Positions 6,906-20,000 are shown, counted from the stretch's first letter. The stretch is DNA of 20,000 nt from an uncultured virus (IMG/VR IMGVR_UViG_3300037067_024288) (IMGVR_UViG_3300037067_024288); one strand, 5' to 3'. The notes: generated from the sequence alone by a model not told the origin. Numbers and translations are program-made.

Positions 6906-6937
6906 TTACGAAATAGCTAATATTTTTGACTAAAAGT

Positions 6938-6989: not shown

Positions 6990-7166
6990 GTGAGAATCAA
7001 ACCTTTAAATAATAAATTAGCATTTTGGCTATTTGTAATACTTACTATCATTGATATTGGCATAGTAATTTTTCATCCATTGATGTTTATAGGAAAAATT
7101 TTTATTGGGGCAAGCTTAGCTCTCTCAGTTGTCAATATCCCTTTGTTGTGGAAATATAAATTCTAA
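6990..7166 (+). CDS. 58-aa two-transmembrane-helix protein (not in ORF track)
   Basis: GTG start. MRIKPLNNKLAFWLFVILTIIDIGIVIFHPLMFIGKIFIGASLALSVVNIPLLWKYKF has two hydrophobic stretches and ends 5 nt before the next ATG. Confidence 0.6.
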   Translation: MRIKPLNNKLAFWLFVILTIIDIGIVIFHPLMFIGKIFIGASLALSVVNIPLLWKYKF

Positions 7167-7171
7167 AAAAA

Positions 7172-7621
7172 ATGAAAACTTTATTAATTTCAATCCTGAT
7201 TTTTATTTCATTTGAAATATTCTCTCAAAGTTCATCATCTATAATAATTAGCCCTGAAGATGTCGGTATTGGTCCATTGGGTTCTTATAAATTTGGTAAA
7301 TCAATTGTGTCAGCCGGGGTATCCTACGGAAATTATTATAATACTTCATTCTTACGCGATCATTGGAAAACATATACTTCCTATGGTTATTTTTTTGGGG
7401 ATCATTCATACCTTTTAGTTGATATTCATTATAACCAGTTTAACATTATTAGGGAAGTTCCATCTTGGTTTAATGAAAAAGCACTAACCAAATGGACTTA
7501 TTCAATAGGAGGGGGGATCATTCTTGATCAATTTCATTCTACACTTCAAGTTGATCTTATACAGCATATTGGAACGGTCAGTTTTGGCTATTATTTTGGC
7601 AGGGATTTAATTTATAAATAA
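7172..7621 (+). CDS. Secreted outer-membrane beta-barrel-like protein
   Basis: Signal peptide MKTLLISILIFISFEIFS followed by Q. Gly/aromatic alternating strands (AGVSYG, SYGYFF, YSIGGGI) and a C-terminal VSFGYYF strand. Confidence 0.65.
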   Translation: MKTLLISILIFISFEIFSQSSSSIIISPEDVGIGPLGSYKFGKSIVSAGVSYGNYYNTSFLRDHWKTYTSYGYFFGDHSYLLVDIHYNQFNIIREVPSWFNEKALTKWTYSIGGGIILDQFHSTLQVDLIQHIGTVSFGYYFGRDLIYK

Positions 7622-7710
7622 CCGTGCATAAAACAGTTGTAGATTATGATTAAGAATGTATGTAAAAACGGGAAAAGCGAGTTGCATTTGTTAATTAATA
7701 TTAATGAAAA

Positions 7711-7842
7711 ATGAGTCTGCAACATCCATTAGTAGGAATAGCATTAACCTTACTTGTATTAGTAATTATAGGCTTTACAGAGCATAGAAAGGCTAAGAAA
7801 CAAGCAAAAAAAATGAATGATGGTAAATCAAAGAATAACTGA
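7711..7842 (+). CDS. 43-aa single-pass membrane protein (not in ORF track)
   Basis: MSLQHPLVGIALTLLVLVIIGFTEHRKAKKQAKKMNDGKSKNN: one hydrophobic helix plus a basic tail. Confidence 0.5.
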   Translation: MSLQHPLVGIALTLLVLVIIGFTEHRKAKKQAKKMNDGKSKNN

Positions 7843-8191
7843 TCTCAGGAAAGTTATTAATATCCCAAATCATTTTAATCCAGGCATATTAGGGATACTT
7901 ATTTATGAACCATATATGCGAAAACAATATTATATGGATTCATTGAAATACTTTACCAATATTGAGATTAAGCAAGCAATTGTTTTTACCGATAATCCTA
8001 CAATAGCTAAAAAATATCTGTGTTACTCAATAATTGAATCTAATAATACAATTGATGAGTTTTTAAAGATTTGCATGTGTGAACATCTGATTATTGATAA
8101 GTCTCAATATGCTTATTTAGCAGCTATTCTCAATCCAAATAAAGATAAAATTATTGTCCATCCGGGCGATATTGATTTAATAATCACTTAA
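7817..8191 (+). CDS. Degenerate/truncated GT11-like protein (C-terminal half only)
   Basis: IVFTDNP, DEFLKICMCEHLIIDKSQYAYLAAILN and KDKIIVHP align by eye with the C-halves of the two GT11 genes. The HxRRGD motif is absent. Confidence 0.6.
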   Translation: MMVNQRITDLRKVINIPNHFNPGILGILIYEPYMRKQYYMDSLKYFTNIEIKQAIVFTDNPTIAKKYLCYSIIESNNTIDEFLKICMCEHLIIDKSQYAYLAAILNPNKDKIIVHPGDIDLIIT

Positions 8192-8201
8192 ATTTTTAAT
8201 T

Positions 8202-8468
8202 ATGACAAAAGCAGAATTAGTAGCTAGTATAGCTGCAAAAACAGGAAAAACAAAGATTGAAGCAGAACAATTTATTGAAGCATTTCAATCTGTAGTAAAA
8301 GAAAACATCAGTGCCGGGATTACCATTCGTGGTTTTGGTACATTTTTACTTAAAGATCGTGCCGCTAAACCTGCGAGAAATATCAAGACAGGAGAAACTA
8401 TTCAAATTCCAGCTCATAAGGCTCCTCTGTTAAAATTCGCAAAGGAATTCAAAGAAGAAGTTCGATAA
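8202..8468 (+). CDS. hup: HU family DNA-binding protein
   Basis: MTKAELVASIA, IRGFGTF, RAAKPARNIKTGETIQIPA: canonical HU/IHF signature, 88 aa. Confidence 0.95.
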   Translation: MTKAELVASIAAKTGKTKIEAEQFIEAFQSVVKENISAGITIRGFGTFLLKDRAAKPARNIKTGETIQIPAHKAPLLKFAKEFKEEVR

Positions 8469-8501
8469 GTCGCGCCCTGTATTGGGTGTGTGGATTGAAA
8501 C
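8469..8501 (+). CRISPR. Solitary type I-C-like CRISPR repeat (SRU), not an array
   Basis: GTCGCGCCCTGTATTGGGTGTGTGGATTGAAAC (33 nt). GTCGC start, stem CGCGCCC/GGGTGTG with two G:U pairs, TGGATTGAAAC end as in I-C repeats. Only one copy found; no cas genes in the window. Confidence 0.8.
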
Positions 8502-8542
8502 GATAATAAGTAGGTAGATTGTTGTTGATTTTCCTTTTGTGA

Positions 8543-8572
8543 GGACCGGGGATTTACTTCCCGGTCTTTTTT
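8543..8572 (+). terminator. Rho-independent terminator after HU and the repeat
   Basis: GGACCGGGGA-TTTAC-TTCCCGGTCT stem-loop followed by a T run. Confidence 0.85.
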
Positions 8573-8745
8573 ATTGCATAGGAAATTTCATATTCAATTA
8601 TTTAGTTGAATCGATTGAATGCAAAAAATTTGTAGTTCATCGTTCTATAAATCATACAATTACAAATTAATAAAAATATCAGAAATTGATCAGAAAAAGA
8701 ACTATCTTTGAATCCTAATTGGTTATCAATCCAAACTACAACACC

Positions 8746-8795
8746 AAAAAGAAAAAGCCCCAAGACTTGTTTCTGCAAACAATCTGGGGCTTTTC
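8746..8795 (-). terminator. Rho-independent, probably bidirectional, terminator of the minus-strand operon
   Basis: AAAAGCCCC-a-AGA-c-TTGTTT-ctgc-AAACAA-TCT-GGGGCTTTT hairpin, followed on the minus strand by TTTTTCTTTTT, about 20 nt past the stop at 8814. Confidence 0.8.
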
Positions 8796-8813
8796 GATTT
8801 AAACCTGTTAATA

Positions 8814-9695
8814 TTAATGATTATCGGGATTCTGGGCGTAGCTCTCTTTAATATCATTAATCCCTTCTTTTGATTCCTGTTTGATCCCAAATAATTCATC
8901 TACTGATATCTCTGAATCCGCTATCTGATTTATGAGACTGATCATTTCAATAATATCAAATTTATTGAATAGAAAAATGTCCTTTTTGAAGTATTCAGAA
9001 ATTTTCGTGTCTGAAATGCCATAGGATGCAAAAACTTGAATCAACTCATCTCGCTTAGAAATTAATTTTTCTGTTGTGCTTATGTCCCCAGTTAAAATAT
9101 CCGATGCCGTTTTAAGAAGGGTATCGATTAAAGAGGCTGGAACAATAGAAAGAATGGCTTTTCGCGTAGCTTTAGCAGTGGCAAAATTTCCAGCTTCAAT
9201 AATCATTTGATCAAAACTTTTAGTCTTATCTGCATTGTAAATTGCCTGTACACCTTCCGATTTTATGATAAGCATTGACTCTAAATCTATGATTACGCAA
9301 TCAGATGTTATAAATTGTCTCCTTTGTTCTCTCACCCGACTTTCTATCCTGAGATTATGATATGACTGTGAAATTAATTTTGCCAGGTAAATAGTAGGGA
9401 TCATTACCTTTTCATTACCTGGATCATTTATGATATAAAAACATTTTGAAGCCGTATTAATATCAATACCCGCTAGGCAATTATCAGTTACAACCTGTAA
9501 ATTTCTGGGGTATTTCCGGGCCACGTCAACCGATGTCATCATTTGTAAACTTGCCTCTTGCTCTGGAATTAGTTTAGGAGGTAAACTTTTTACACTCTTT
9601 TTTATAGAGTCCCGTGTAAATTTCTTCATGTCTTGCATATCAATCGTATTTAGAAGGTTCATTTCAACACTCAACAAAACCATACTATTTACCAA
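8814..9695 (-). CDS. Conserved phage protein, candidate single-strand annealing/recombination partner of YqaJ
   Basis: VARKYPRN...ASKCFY...PTIYLAKLISQSYHNLRIESRV...ATAKATRKAILSIVP resembles, from recall, an uncharacterised family found next to YqaJ genes. Function is inferred. Confidence 0.45.
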   Translation of the reverse strand: MVNSMVLLSVEMNLLNTIDMQDMKKFTRDSIKKSVKSLPPKLIPEQEASLQMMTSVDVARKYPRNLQVVTDNCLAGIDINTASKCFYIINDPGNEKVMIPTIYLAKLISQSYHNLRIESRVREQRRQFITSDCVIIDLESMLIIKSEGVQAIYNADKTKSFDQMIIEAGNFATAKATRKAILSIVPASLIDTLLKTASDILTGDISTTEKLISKRDELIQVFASYGISDTKISEYFKKDIFLFNKFDIIEMISLINQIADSEISVDELFGIKQESKEGINDIKESYAQNPDNH

Positions 9696-10098
9696 TACCC
9701 TCAGCTTTTATCATATATTCATCCATTGCTAACGGAATAATCCATTGCAAGTTTGGTATCACCTGCCACGTAAGAACATTACTGATATCAAATATTAATA
9801 TTTCTTCATCAGTCATGGTCTGGATTCCACGTATTTCAGACTTTGGAATAAATGCTTTAAAAAAATATACAATACAATCAGAATACTGAACTGTAAGAAA
9901 ATTATTCCATTCATCCCATTTCACTCCAGCCTCTTCAAGAAATTCACGAATCATTGCATCAAGTGGCTTTTCATAACTTTCAATATGACCACCAACTCCA
10001 TTCCATTGTCCTTTTTGCCATTGCGGCCTATTTTTTTTAATTAATACAACTTGGTCTGTTTCTTTACAAAACATAAACCCTACAACATAGTTTTTCAT
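9685..10098 (-). CDS. NUDIX hydrolase
   Basis: Complete Nudix box GGHIESYEKPLDAMIREFLEEAGV, preceded by RPQWQKGQWNG. Confidence 0.9.
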   Translation of the reverse strand: MKNYVVGFMFCKETDQVVLIKKNRPQWQKGQWNGVGGHIESYEKPLDAMIREFLEEAGVKWDEWNNFLTVQYSDCIVYFFKAFIPKSEIRGIQTMTDEEILIFDISNVLTWQVIPNLQWIIPLAMDEYMIKAEGIGK

Positions 10099-12920: not shown

Positions 12921-13820
12921 TTACACGTTTTTACCATTTTGGAAGTTGTTTAATGTTAAACCTAAAATATTCTTTTTATCAAAAAATGGAACGTTGGCAG
13001 CTTTACATTGAGAGAATAATAACTCAATCCATTCTTTTTGCATTGGCCTTGCTTTTGTCCCCGTTTCAGGTCCACATATAACAAGATCAAGTGCAGGTCT
13101 GCTTGAGTCTCCGCAATTAAATATAGGTTCTAAGACTTGGTAGGATGCAATATGCTCACTTTCGCTGTTAAATTGCTGAATATTCTTCAGATCAACTTGG
13201 TCAAGCAAAGGTTCACAACTAATAAATCTCTTTGCTGCCGGTATTTTTAAAAGAATAGGTATCCTTTTATTAGCATATTCTTGGTTTTCTACGGTTGTTC
13301 CAAACCAACAATTTTTAAAAGGCCACAGACTCATTATTTCATCATAAAAATATAATTCACTTTCAAGTGTCTTTATATATTTATCATGTAACTGATTACA
13401 ATATTTATGTAGATATTCTTTGAACCTTTTAGATTCAAAAACTGATAATGCAATATCTGGCCTTTTTGTTAAAATCTGGAATGTATGTCGTTCATTTAAA
13501 AATATTGTAGCAAATACTTGGGCTATCCAATCTACTTTTACTGACTTATGAAATAAATCTCCCATTGACTCTACAAATATCATTTTGGGTTTTTTCCACT
13601 TAAATGGCTTATCCAATTCTGATTTTTCTAAATGTGTTTTGCCAGTCCACCCATTAGGACTAATCACACTCAGATATTTATCAGATATTTTTGGATTAGG
13701 ATTATTCACTAATCTTTTTGCAAATTGTTCTGCATAACATCTTGAACAACCAATACTTATTTTTTCGCATCCAATTACAGGATTCCATGTTTGTTCTGTC
13801 CAACCTATTTTATTTGCCAT
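12921..13820 (-). CDS. DUF5131 (phage Gp37/Gp68) three-Cys-motif protein
   Basis: IGWTEQTWNPVIGCEKISIGCSRCYAE, IFVESMGDLFH, HTFQILTKRP, RFISCEPLL, VICGPETG, VPFFDK. Confidence 0.9.
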   Translation of the reverse strand: MANKIGWTEQTWNPVIGCEKISIGCSRCYAEQFAKRLVNNPNPKISDKYLSVISPNGWTGKTHLEKSELDKPFKWKKPKMIFVESMGDLFHKSVKVDWIAQVFATIFLNERHTFQILTKRPDIALSVFESKRFKEYLHKYCNQLHDKYIKTLESELYFYDEIMSLWPFKNCWFGTTVENQEYANKRIPILLKIPAAKRFISCEPLLDQVDLKNIQQFNSESEHIASYQVLEPIFNCGDSSRPALDLVICGPETGTKARPMQKEWIELLFSQCKAANVPFFDKKNILGLTLNNFQNGKNV

Positions 13821-13822
13821 AA

Positions 13823-14257
13823 TTATTTCGTTATATTTTCAATTGCATCAACAATTCTTTGTAGTGTATCCATCATATCCGGGAAGTTTATTATATATTC
13901 TTTTCCTTCCTCGTTAATAATACAATCGGACAATACTTCTATTTCACCATTATTTTCAAAGACAAGTTGTGCCTTGTAAGCCCCCGTCTTTAAAGGGATT
14001 GATATATTAACAGATTTTAATTTATTTGAAGCAAAATAATCACAATTTATTTCTGATTTTCCGATTAATGTATCAACGATATAATGAGGATTCCTGACTT
14101 CAGGGCATGTAAAAGGGATTGTCAATATATCGTAATAAATATTGGGTTCAGTAGAATAACATAATTCTTCGCCAAGAGAATCTAATTTAAATGGCTCATC
14201 CAGAATATTAAAAAAGTTAGATGGTGTAGGCTGGTTAAGTATTTCAGAAATATTCAT
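13823..14257 (-). CDS. Hypothetical protein
   Basis: 144-aa ORF in operon. Confidence 0.6.
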   Translation of the reverse strand: MNISEILNQPTPSNFFNILDEPFKLDSLGEELCYSTEPNIYYDILTIPFTCPEVRNPHYIVDTLIGKSEINCDYFASNKLKSVNISIPLKTGAYKAQLVFENNGEIEVLSDCIINEEGKEYIINFPDMMDTLQRIVDAIENITK

Positions 14258-14281
14258 TTTTTGAAAGATTTAATGATTAAA

Positions 14282-14794
14282 TTAAGCTTTGAATCGCGCT
14301 CTCAGTCTATCGTATATAATTAATTTTCCACGATAAATTAATGCTTTTAAATTGTTAAATTTATTTATCTCTAAAAAAGTTAATATTTCATTATATGAAT
14401 AACCCATTTTTCTCATTATCAGCGCGCTTCTCATTTTTATATTCTTCAATTGTCTAATCTCTTTTCCCATTAATTTCATTAACCCACGCTTATCACTATG
14501 CTCATGATTCATATAATTAATAAGATATTCTATATCTATGTATTTTCTTTGTTGTTTATCAAATCTTGTTATTGGGGACCTTTTATCTCTTTGAGTTTTA
14601 TCAATAAATAAATTATGCAAAACTGATGCGCCCCAATGAAACATATCTTTATCGGTTTTAAAAGTTTCTAACTTGTTTAATATTTTGATATTTGTTTCTT
14701 GTAATAAATCCTCAGCATCCATCCTATTACGCGTTAATTTAATCGCATAGCTTAAAAGCCTTTTTTGGATAGATACTAAAGGATCCAGACTCAT
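14282..14794 (-). CDS. ECF-type RNA polymerase sigma factor
   Basis: Region 2 RLLSYAIKLTRNRMDAEDLLQET...W...LHNLFID; region 4 GYSYNEI...LKALIYRGK. Confidence 0.8.
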   Translation of the reverse strand: MSLDPLVSIQKRLLSYAIKLTRNRMDAEDLLQETNIKILNKLETFKTDKDMFHWGASVLHNLFIDKTQRDKRSPITRFDKQQRKYIDIEYLINYMNHEHSDKRGLMKLMGKEIRQLKNIKMRSALIMRKMGYSYNEILTFLEINKFNNLKALIYRGKLIIYDRLRARFKA

Positions 14795-14802
14795 CTCATA
14801 TA

Positions 14803-15225
14803 TTAATTATTTCTGTTTTTTATACTGTTTTTGACTGAATCAGAATCACTATCCCAAATTATACCGACAGATCTTTTAAGAGAATCACACCATAATTTAT
14901 ATTTAATCTTTGCTTTTGCAACATCCTTACTTGTCTGAATATCTGATTCTAATTTCATCTTTGCTATAATGCTTGGAATTTCATCTAATCTGTTTTGTCT
15001 GATGGAATCTAACTTCCTTTTCCCTTCCTTAACGATTTTATCAACGATTTGCATTTTATCATCTGCATATAACTTTAAACATTCGTTACAGCCTGCCTTT
15101 ATAGTATCATGTACAGGCGGCGTAATTACATATATCGTGTCAGTTAAAACAGATGAACATTTTGGACAATTGTCACATCCAATTAATGCAATTATAATTA
15201 ATGTGAAATAGATTAGTTTTTTCAT
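14803..15225 (-). CDS. Putative lipoprotein with coiled-coil
   Basis: MKKLIYFTLIIIALIG-C lipobox-like cleavage site, DTIYV/VHDTI low-complexity segment, helical C-terminus. Confidence 0.6.
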   Translation of the reverse strand: MKKLIYFTLIIIALIGCDNCPKCSSVLTDTIYVITPPVHDTIKAGCNECLKLYADDKMQIVDKIVKEGKRKLDSIRQNRLDEIPSIIAKMKLESDIQTSKDVAKAKIKYKLWCDSLKRSVGIIWDSDSDSVKNSIKNRNN

Positions 15226-15288
15226 AGTTTTTTATAATTTACTTGATGTTTAAGTTTAGCATTAGGTGCGGGTTATATAATTAATATT

Positions 15289-15492
15289 TTAGTTAAAAAT
15301 AATCTGAAATTTACACGAAGAAACAACTTTAACATTTAAGTTACAGGACTTTTTAATTTCCTGAGCTAACGAGTGATCATCAATCTTACAAAGCCTATCA
15401 ATTAATTTTGATTTAAAAGACTCATCTGAAATTCCAAATGGGCGTATTGATATTTCCGCAATTTCTTGTTTAGTTAATATTTCACTACTCAT
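15289..15492 (-). CDS. Hypothetical protein
   Basis: 67-aa ORF co-oriented with the operon. Confidence 0.5.
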   Translation of the reverse strand: MSSEILTKQEIAEISIRPFGISDESFKSKLIDRLCKIDDHSLAQEIKKSCNLNVKVVSSCKFQIIFN

Positions 15493-15575
15493 TTAATTAT
15501 ACTTTTATTGGTTTATAGCTGATTGTACGAATATATTAAATATTGGTTTCAAATCCCAAATAATTTTGACGAATG

Positions 15576-16037
15576 TTATAGATTATACATTTCTTTTTCG
15601 GCTTTATTAACCCAATATTTTTTACTATTCCTATTAATACATTCGTAGTCTTTAAAGGACCTTCCTGTTTTATCATTTTCAATTAATAATTGGCCATAAG
15701 TTAGAAGCTTAACTCTCTTATCAAAGCTTATTATATCCGCTATTGAAGGGGAAGGATACCGGAAATTATCAAGTAAATAACCTACAGCATCTTTTAATCT
15801 TAAATCCGAAAAATTATTAGCAATTATTCTTTCAGATAATAAATTAAACCAAAGTGGCTCCAATGCAGGAAAAGCAACTTGTACTTTTTTTACTTCCTGG
15901 GCGATACATTCAGGTGTTAAATCACCTTTGTATATGCTTATCTCGAATTCCCCGGTTGATTCCTTCAGCAATATTTGTGGCAAGTTCTGTGTCTGAGGTT
16001 GCGGGGTTCTTTGAGGTAAATTTTTGCTTAAATCCAT
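15576..16037 (-). CDS. Phage protein downstream of the replication initiator (possible helicase loader/inhibitor)
   Basis: AFP...F..L.ER...N.FS..RLKDAV...LDNFRYPSPSIADIIS pattern and its position after the initiator. Start is uncertain because of a long overlap. Confidence 0.5.
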   Translation of the reverse strand: MDLSKNLPQRTPQPQTQNLPQILLKESTGEFEISIYKGDLTPECIAQEVKKVQVAFPALEPLWFNLLSERIIANNFSDLRLKDAVGYLLDNFRYPSPSIADIISFDKRVKLLTYGQLLIENDKTGRSFKDYECINRNSKKYWVNKAEKEMYNL

Positions 16038-16629
16038 CTTTTTTATTTATTAATTCATCATTCCACGATTTATTATTTAAAAATGTTTCTGGATTTTTTC
16101 TGTATTGTTTATCAGGCTGAGCAATCTTATATTTCGGAATATATTCAAAAATAAGTTTCTTTTCTGATTCTGGAAGTTTATTCCATTTATTTATCAGCTT
16201 TTCATTATATCCTACCTTTTTATCATATAAGTTCCAAAACTCATCAAATGATATTTTATCAGGTGACATTTCTATCGTATTTTTGATTGTCTTACCACGT
16301 GTCTTTTTGTCAACATTGTACCCTATATATAACTCATATTCACAAATTGTTATAATGCTATATTTGTTTGTCGATTTTATTGTCACATCATTTGTTTGTA
16401 TCATCCTTGTTAAACATGTTCTAATTGATCTATCAGAAATACATGTTTCTTTTTTTAATGCTTTATTTGTTGTAATTAATTGGCCTCTTTTAATTTCAAT
16501 ACCATTAATTGTTTCATCTTCAGTATTGGCATTGATAAACAGATGAATAAATAATTGAATAGTATATGGTTTAGTATACCAATTTCTATCTTTGAGTAAT
16601 TTTAATGGGTTAATTTTAAAATTTTTCAT
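15922..16629 (-). CDS. Phage replication initiator / replisome organizer
   Basis: N-terminal wHTH (LFIHLFINAN, IKRGQLITT, ISDRSIRTCL, TNKYSIITICEY). C-terminal FDEFWNLYDKKVG...YRKNPETFLNNKSWNDE domain. Confidence 0.75.
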   Translation of the reverse strand: MKNFKINPLKLLKDRNWYTKPYTIQLFIHLFINANTEDETINGIEIKRGQLITTNKALKKETCISDRSIRTCLTRMIQTNDVTIKSTNKYSIITICEYELYIGYNVDKKTRGKTIKNTIEMSPDKISFDEFWNLYDKKVGYNEKLINKWNKLPESEKKLIFEYIPKYKIAQPDKQYRKNPETFLNNKSWNDELINKKDGFKQKFTSKNPATSDTELATNIAEGINRGIRDKHIQR

Positions 16630-19787: not shown

Positions 19788-20000
19788 ATGAAAACATATA
19801 AAGGAAATATAGAAGTAACCACTGAAAATTCAGATAAGTGGAATAAAAAGATACAATATTATACTCAAGTATCCGGCGACATCAGGGTCTATCAGGGCGC
19901 AACCCTCACATGCCCGAATTTAAGCGAAGTATCCGGCTACATCTGGGTCTATCAGGGCGCAACCCTCACATGCCCGAATTTAACAAAATCCGGCTACATC
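19788..20000 (+). CDS. Tandem-repeat (LRR/receptor-L-like beta-solenoid) protein, 3'-truncated (not in ORF track)
   Basis: Open frame from ATG 19788: MKTYKGNIEVTTENSDKWNKKIQYYTQV-SGDIRVYQGATLTCPNLSEV-SGYIWVYQGATLTCPNLTK-SGYI... Confidence 0.75.
   Translation, partial: MKTYKGNIEVTTENSDKWNKKIQYYTQVSGDIRVYQGATLTCPNLSEVSGYIWVYQGATLTCPNLTKSGYI
19867..20000 (+). repeat. Near-identical 60/57-bp in-frame tandem repeat
   Basis: 19867-19923 and 19927-19983 differ at two positions only (19878 G vs 19938 T; 19884 A vs 19944 T). The third unit begins 57 bp after the second. Confidence 0.95.

Follow-up and report, generated by a model that had tools for sequence, protein, structure and literature searches.

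The element at 8469-8572 of the window, by which we mean the whole stretch of 20,000 nt analysed here from an uncultured virus (IMG/VR IMGVR_UViG_3300037067_024288), joins a single type I-C CRISPR repeat to a 39-nt spacer-like segment and an intrinsic terminator, all on the + strand and directly behind a gene for an HU-like protein. On balance, we favor the interpretation that this is a solitary-repeat RNA anti-CRISPR of the phage, a decoy that would be aimed at a putative type I-C system of the host. The predicted RNA has the outline of a crRNA for which no target was found, and would thus compete with real crRNAs as a decoy.

The repeat (GTCGCGCCCTGTATTGGGTGTGTGGATTGAAAC; psiR, 33 nt, 8469-8501) follows the stop codon of the HU-like gene with a gap of 0 nt. 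It folds with a 2-nt 5' overhang (GU), a 7-bp stem (8471-8477 with 8484-8490), a 6-nt loop and an 11-nt tail (TGGATTGAAAC, 8491-8501), and its energy of -11.8 kcal/mol is equalled by 2 of 200 shuffled sequences. The - strand yields -4.6 kcal/mol, and the repeat structure therefore exists in the + strand transcript only. The stem itself leads to the same conclusion, since it includes two G-U pairs, both of them pair-preserving changes from a fully G-C stem, so that the hairpin is kept only in + strand RNA. The repeat also stands out as an island of 58% GC in a window of 31% GC. The generic I-C pattern, GTCGCNCC-N10-16-GTGGATTGAAAC, matches the window once, as against 0.00 matches expected from 200 shuffles, and a chance origin is thereby excluded. 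No second repeat lies within 140 nt on either side, where the best ungapped matches reach 15/33 downstream and 13/33 upstream, and a repeat finder run over the whole window returned no further copy of the I-C repeat. Past the terminator, at 8592-8622 on the + strand and 87 nt after the repeat, there is an AU-rich hairpin (ATTCAA/TTGAAT, 8-nt loop) followed by CGATTGAATGC. It loosely recalls the outline of the repeat, a hairpin followed by GGATTGAAAC, with 15/33 identity by hand alignment; the likeness is probably due to chance, GATTGAA being expected about 5 times per window.

The assignment to type I-C draws on the processing of such repeats as described in PMC8524198, where they have a 7-nt stem with overhangs of 2 and 11 nt, and where Cas5c cuts at the 3' base of the 7-bp stem to leave an 11-nt 5' handle. 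For the B. halodurans enzyme, the UGG that directly follows the cut, rather than the loop, is the center of recognition (PMC8524198). All of this has its counterpart in the window repeat, with its 7-bp stem, 2-nt 5' and 11-nt 3' overhangs, the UGG right after the predicted cut, the tail end GGAUUGAAAC and the start GUCGC, and its termini are shared by a repeat that is labelled I-C in the supplement of PMC10651486. The loop is of 6 nt rather than 5, and the length of 33 nt is that of 72 of 244 viral I-C repeats. Rfam gave 15.8 bits for CRISPR-DR9 against a gathering score of 45, and nothing in the whole window reached a gathering score; we treat this miss as a reflection of narrow DR models and not as disqualifying. 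Judged by sequence and fold, 8469-8501 is a type I-C repeat and structurally a Cas5c substrate, in which cleavage is predicted between 8490 and 8491 and would leave the 11-nt handle UGGAUUGAAAC (8491-8501).

The handle is followed by the spacer-like segment (psiS, 8502-8540, 39 nt) and by the terminator (8541-8572), in which a stem of 12 pairs (8541-8569) encloses a 5-nt loop and the T run occupies 8567-8572. Folded by itself, the terminator reaches -17.9 kcal/mol, a stability matched by 0 of 200 shuffles. Two further candidates were rejected, psiS as a structured RNA, its fold not being significant (z -1.19), and the terminator as a degenerate second repeat, the best identity being 15/33. A preliminary description of this DNA had ended the repeat stem at 8490 and counted 11 nt from 8491 to 8501 and 39 nt from 8502 to 8540; sequence and fold agree with it on all of these coordinates, and the 10-bp terminator stem that it started at 8543 proves to be the core of the 12-pair stem located by the terminator scan. 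The RNA of about 80 nt that it derived from one Cas5c cut comes by coordinates to 82 nt (8491-8572), given the predicted cut after 8490, and handle and psiS together span 50 nt to the foot of the terminator. Its picture of mature I-C crRNA, with an 11-nt handle and a 3' hairpin, agrees with PMC8524198, where a spacer of 33 nt and a 3' stem-loop of 21 nt follow the handle. Its term spacer-length is apt only in part: psiS is near the size of I-C spacers, but its 39 nt fall just beyond all 125 spacers measured in 28 I-C arrays of viral contigs, which range from 31 to 38 nt with a mode of 34.

The HU-like gene (8202-8468, + strand, 88 aa) was identified with Pfam PF00216 (Bac_DNA_binding, 89.3 bits, E 2e-25) and PHROG 379 (DNA binding protein, E 1.6e-23), and is the last in a run of + strand genes. 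Between its TAA stop (8466-8468) and the repeat there is no gap, so that the repeat lies within the 3' untranslated region of the gene. Elsewhere in the window, PHROGs identify a RecE-like exonuclease, an HNH endonuclease, a DnaD-like loader, a sigma factor, methyltransferases and glycosyltransferases, and no cas genes appear among the window genes scanned in this way. The repeat accordingly has the marks of a solitary one: it is intergenic, it is set in phage gene content, and it has neither cas genes nor a second (partial) repeat for company. No anti-CRISPR was recognized among the neighboring genes with PHROGs and Pfam. The small ORFs upstream of the HU-like gene, ORF 7711-7842 included, fall into no Pfam or PHROG family, and a sequence search of ORFs 6990-7166, 7172-7621 and 7817-8191 against solved structures returned nothing to suggest an anti-CRISPR. 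On the other side of the element, 8757-8791 holds a hairpin (AGCCCCAAGA...TCTGGGGCT) followed by a T run on the - strand, with a long loop and missed by the terminator scan. It is likely to be the terminator of the convergent - strand gene at 8814-9695, which would place the lone repeat at a convergent junction. At the end of the window, 19867-19983 (+ strand) consists of two tandem 57-nt copies at a spacing of 60 nt, 96% identical and relatively GC-rich, within an ORF whose start is at 19788 and whose end is beyond the window.

The same neighborhood suggests how the repeat would be expressed. A sigma-70 scan found no promoter from the HU start codon up to the repeat. TAnnTTTG is a Bacteroidota-type promoter motif; its nearest upstream + strand copy (7288-7295) is inside ORF 7172-7621, and its nearest intergenic copy (6921-6928) stands ahead of the small-gene block that ends with the HU-like gene, the motif being unenriched in the window as a whole (35 matches vs 32.8 expected). 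Because of the 0-nt gap and the position of the terminator, we infer that the repeat is co-transcribed with the HU-like gene, and its expression would rest on read-through from the HU operon. The public runs found to hold the phage are two DNA runs and no RNA run. Shine-Dalgarno-like motifs precede 2 of 37 predicted genes, a scarcity that we take to point to a Bacteroidota-like host and that is the sole hint of the host.

Among the 50,697 phage records of INPHARED, the phage has no close relative: megablast with 7000-10000 matched none of them, and the tblastn hits of two phage proteins are all below 40% identity and scattered across many host genera. In a protein-seeded scan of IMG/VR, there was no relative of ORF 8814-9695 and one relative, at 31%, of ORF 12921-13820. 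Three distant relatives of the HU-like gene are present in IMG/VR (43-50% identity), all of them without the repeat and with a plain terminator at the end, roughly 65-85 nt past the stop by hand count. The phage itself occurs in two public DNA runs from two studies, of groundwater and of landfill, the first of which is possibly the window's own source. One contig per run covers the element (7810-9195 and 7287-8875), with no difference over the element among the differences listed, and the phage varies elsewhere in the same two runs. All other copies of the element that were found are identical, so constraint is not readable from variation. In the region 13000-16050, both runs hold a diverged variant of the phage, with dense substitutions, small indels and the segment 13303-13833 replaced by 405 other letters; several strains therefore coexist in those samples.

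Searches with the repeat itself reached further. IMG/VR contains no exact copy of the repeat, and a wobble-stem pattern matched 9 of its loci, none of them related. A degenerate pattern specific for the loop matched one metagenome contig (L121), which is identical to the window across 701 aligned bases, and one genome record (L120), an Anaerolineales MAG with an orphan mini-array of two repeats, of which the match is the first. That first repeat and the phage repeat have the loop CCCTGTATTGGG in common, and the spacers behind them match over their first 5 bases (GATAA). No Cas5d was found in this MAG, for which completeness is not given. The mini-array (L120/L126, 9629-9705, - strand) has two differing I-C-like repeats that enclose a spacer of 32 nt, and it lies upstream of genes for trigger factor (tig) and ClpP (clpP).

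A target for psiS was sought in phages, plasmids, viral contigs and the window. With blastn against INPHARED (50,697 records), E values were 0.6 or higher and the matches began at psiS position 3 or later, leaving the PAM-proximal end uncovered; against PLSDB (72,556 plasmids) the best E was 0.1, and the single long match was 80.6% identical with an E of 6. IMG/VR was searched with a seed pattern of 20 specified bases in which every sixth base is free (the PAM-proximal bases are GATAATAAGTAGG, with position 6 free), and gave 0 matches. Within the window, psiS has no second copy at 3 or fewer mismatches, and its 12 non-self sites (11 with a seed of at least 8, and 1 on 24/39 identities alone) compare with 10.6 in shuffled sequence, none of the 12 having a TTC or TTA PAM. 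With no such copy and no PAM-flanked seed site, the earlier remark that the window contains no full protospacer is confirmed. The L120 contig gave nothing above chance. In the reverse direction, 76 spacers from I-C arrays in the fetched viral loci matched the window over 15 nt at most. These negative results, which apply to the collections covered, are compatible with a partial target in a host that has not been sequenced.

Viral contigs often contain solitary I-C repeats. The generic I-C pattern identified at least 115 loci in IMG/VR; a single strict match is present in 87 of the 115 loci listed, 78 of which were left after removal of duplicates, and a degenerate second repeat (up to 10 mismatches, within 140 nt) in 4 of the 78 listed (L021, L023, L053 and L085). 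By a crude motif test, 19 of the 78 listed repeats have a ribosome-binding site and a start codon within 70 nt, and these loci, about a quarter of those listed from the L001-L115 set, appear to be 5' leaders of genes and not sites ahead of a terminator. A stricter terminator search covered the 76 listed loci with enough flank, the window included; in 11 of them, the 140 nt downstream contain a terminator, the stems starting at 10, 30, 36, 36, 41 (the window, by the stem call of this search), 47, 48, 59, 61, 85 and 99 nt. Besides the window, 4-5 of 75 listed solitary I-C repeats therefore have a strong terminator that begins 30-48 nt downstream; L073, with its stem at 48 nt, reads as coding sequence by eye. 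In the control, made on the opposite strand and the other flank, 10 of 72 loci had hairpins, mostly weak ones, and 1 of 72 had one in the 30-48 range. For 4 of 10 within a 19-nt span, the binomial tail is about 0.035, on the assumption of a uniform distribution over 0-140 nt and for a span picked post hoc. The layout thus recurs, and the clustering of terminators at 30-48 nt is no more than suggestive. The clear analogues (L011, L035, L080 and L090) are heterogeneous, one of them lying 25 nt behind an ORF and another having a TTGACT-type promoter just upstream.

A pathway for the decoy can be outlined from these features. The HU-like mRNA, a + strand transcript, would carry the repeat in its tail and end at the terminator at 8541-8572. 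In a type I-C host, Cas5c would recognize the 7-bp hairpin and the UGG, cut after 8490, and stay on the downstream 82-nt piece with its 11-nt handle, 39 nt and terminator hairpin. Cas7 subunits would then coat the 39 nt, and the terminator hairpin would close the 3' end. Loading would be expected for this downstream piece because Cas5c occupies the 5'-handle end in Cascade (PMC8524198). The expectation rests on that position of Cas5c and is our own proposal for type I-C; in RacrIF1, of type I-F, inhibition came from the RNA on the upstream side of the cut and not from the handle-bearing piece (PMC10651486). Once assembled, the target-less complex would be a dead end, rivaling real crRNAs for Cascade subunits and lowering interference against the phage, much as a Racr does, or a non-targeting crRNA, which likewise lowered interference (PMC10651486).

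If it matched a host promoter in part, this RNA would instead act as a Cracr, an alternative that we consider possible but less likely. As a regulatory guide, the RNA would use its first 9-12 PAM-proximal bases to pair with a promoter, be it that of the host cas operon, of a CRISPR-supervised toxin or of a defense gene, and Cascade would repress that promoter without cutting. The order of psiR, psiS and terminator is that of CracrVA1, I-C Cracr candidates have been reported (bioRxiv 10.1101/2024.10.29.618823), and host I-C crlRNAs arise from a single repeat after protein genes (bioRxiv 10.1101/2024.12.27.630466). The terminators at 30-48 nt, in 4-5 of 75 listed loci vs 1 of 72 in the control, suggest that the length of the segment is not arbitrary, and psiS opens with GATAAT, which resembles a -10 box and is a weak sign in AT-rich DNA. 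Yet its 12 sites in the window hardly differ from the 10.6 of shuffled sequence and have neither PAM, the 5 bases shared with the L120 spacer are below the published criterion of at least 9, and the 39 nt exceed the 21-24 nt of the CracrVA1 and CracrIE spacers (bioRxiv 10.1101/2024.10.29.618823). A more specific version of the regulatory guide, which we put forward as speculative and doubtful, is a one-repeat guide gene carried in an mRNA tail. Here the Cas5c cut would free a Cracr-type RNA that uses the HU terminator as its 3' hairpin, the HU message would be left capped by the repeat hairpin, and the I-C Cascade of a Bacteroidota-like host in groundwater or landfill would be steered to its own cas or defense promoter.

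The preliminary description had also raised the possibility of a true guide against a competing element, a one-repeat crRNA that would turn the host's Cascade-Cas3 on another phage or a plasmid. Viral mini-arrays against other viruses are known (PMC10120712), and the RNA outline does resemble a full crRNA; nonetheless, no match in INPHARED or PLSDB covers the seed end of psiS, the seed pattern has 0 matches in IMG/VR, the window holds no protospacer, there is a single repeat, and no natural spacer among the 125 measured is as long as 39 nt. The proposal is thus unsupported, and we consider it very improbable. An inert relic is also unlikely, if less remote. In that case, the repeat would be the scar of recombination with a host array or what is left of a decayed mini-array, and the 39 nt and the terminator would be the original 3' end of the HU-like gene. 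Since the distant HU relatives have a plain terminator and no repeat, the repeat does look inserted into an ordinary 3' UTR, and the terminator is unlike any repeat. Against a relic, the repeat is intact at every position relevant to Cas5c, with both stem changes being G-U, whereas decay would be expected in DNA of 31% GC; moreover, the element is unchanged in two runs of two studies (one of them maybe the window's source) while the phage varies elsewhere.

If the favored decoy is active, it would be one more RNA anti-CRISPR, from an uncultured AT-rich phage of groundwater and landfill metagenomes, and the current picture of phage counter-defense is unchanged by it. Its interest is in the type I-C setting, where the position of Cas5c at the 5'-handle end means that the segment after a solitary repeat should load, and where a terminator at spacer distance would give a crRNA-shaped product. 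Viral loci with a strong terminator 30-48 nt past a lone I-C repeat provide a concrete set in which decoys could be told from promoter-silencing guides. Should the mRNA-tail guide prove correct, the 4-5 similar IMG/VR loci would mark a subclass of their own among I-C solitary repeats, one in which the distance from repeat to terminator is fixed, and a Bacteroidota-like host would be outside the phyla so far reported for Cracrs, which in bioRxiv 10.1101/2024.10.29.618823 are Pseudomonadota, Bacillota and Actinomycetota for its 219 candidates, I-C ones included.

Regardless of which of these roles applies, the element belongs by its sequence with the viral solitary repeat units of the Racr and Cracr kind. 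Such units number 2,103 in Camara-Wilpert et al. (Nature 2023, PMC10651486), whose supplement has many labelled I-C; in the part of its supplementary SRU table that was searched, the loop motif of the window repeat was not found. RacrIF1, RacrIC1 and others inhibit interference by sequestering Cas proteins (PMC10651486). The closest of these is RacrIC1, which inhibits I-C interference and is likewise a lone phage I-C repeat with no nearby cas genes or second repeat. Each lies right behind a protein gene, RacrIC1 at 11 nt from acrIC5, with which it forms a bicistronic RNA, and the window element at 0 nt, and competition for Cas proteins is proposed for both. The difference is that RacrIC1 has a known anti-CRISPR upstream and was tested experimentally, whereas the window element has an HU-like gene and is known from sequence alone. 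Viral mini-arrays are also virus-borne repeat material without cas genes, and PMC10120712 describes regulatory mini-arrays in CRISPR loci together with phage copies, in addition to those targeting other viruses. However, mini-arrays of the latter type have two repeats around a spacer with a full match, and the window has one repeat and, in the collections searched, which are not exhaustive, no PAM-flanked protospacer.

The layout itself is that of CracrVA1, which is also phage-borne and in which a single repeat-like sequence is joined to a spacer-like one and a rho-independent terminator (Liu et al., bioRxiv 10.1101/2024.10.29.618823), the same psiR, psiS and terminator as in the window, with processing by the host effector shown there and predicted here. 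What separates a Cracr from a Racr in that work is a match of at least 9 PAM-proximal bases to a host CreR/CreA spacer or to a cas or creT promoter; for the window element, no PAM-flanked seed match above chance was found in the window or the L120 contig, and its 39-nt psiS contrasts with regulatory spacers of 21-24 nt in CracrVA1 and CracrIE. Host I-C crlRNAs, which supervise defense genes and use TTC or TTA PAMs (bioRxiv 10.1101/2024.12.27.630466), differ in residing within host cas operons and having identified promoter targets, as against a phage location and no target found. They nonetheless share with the window element a single I-C repeat right after a protein gene, an 11-nt handle (predicted here) and a 3' hairpin, within which the crlRNA ends, and their 48-50 nt compare with the 50 nt of handle and psiS. 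The complete crRNA shape from a single repeat to which the preliminary description drew attention is thus sound as a shape, but as a concept it was already in print for CracrVA1 and, in similar form, for the host I-C crlRNAs.
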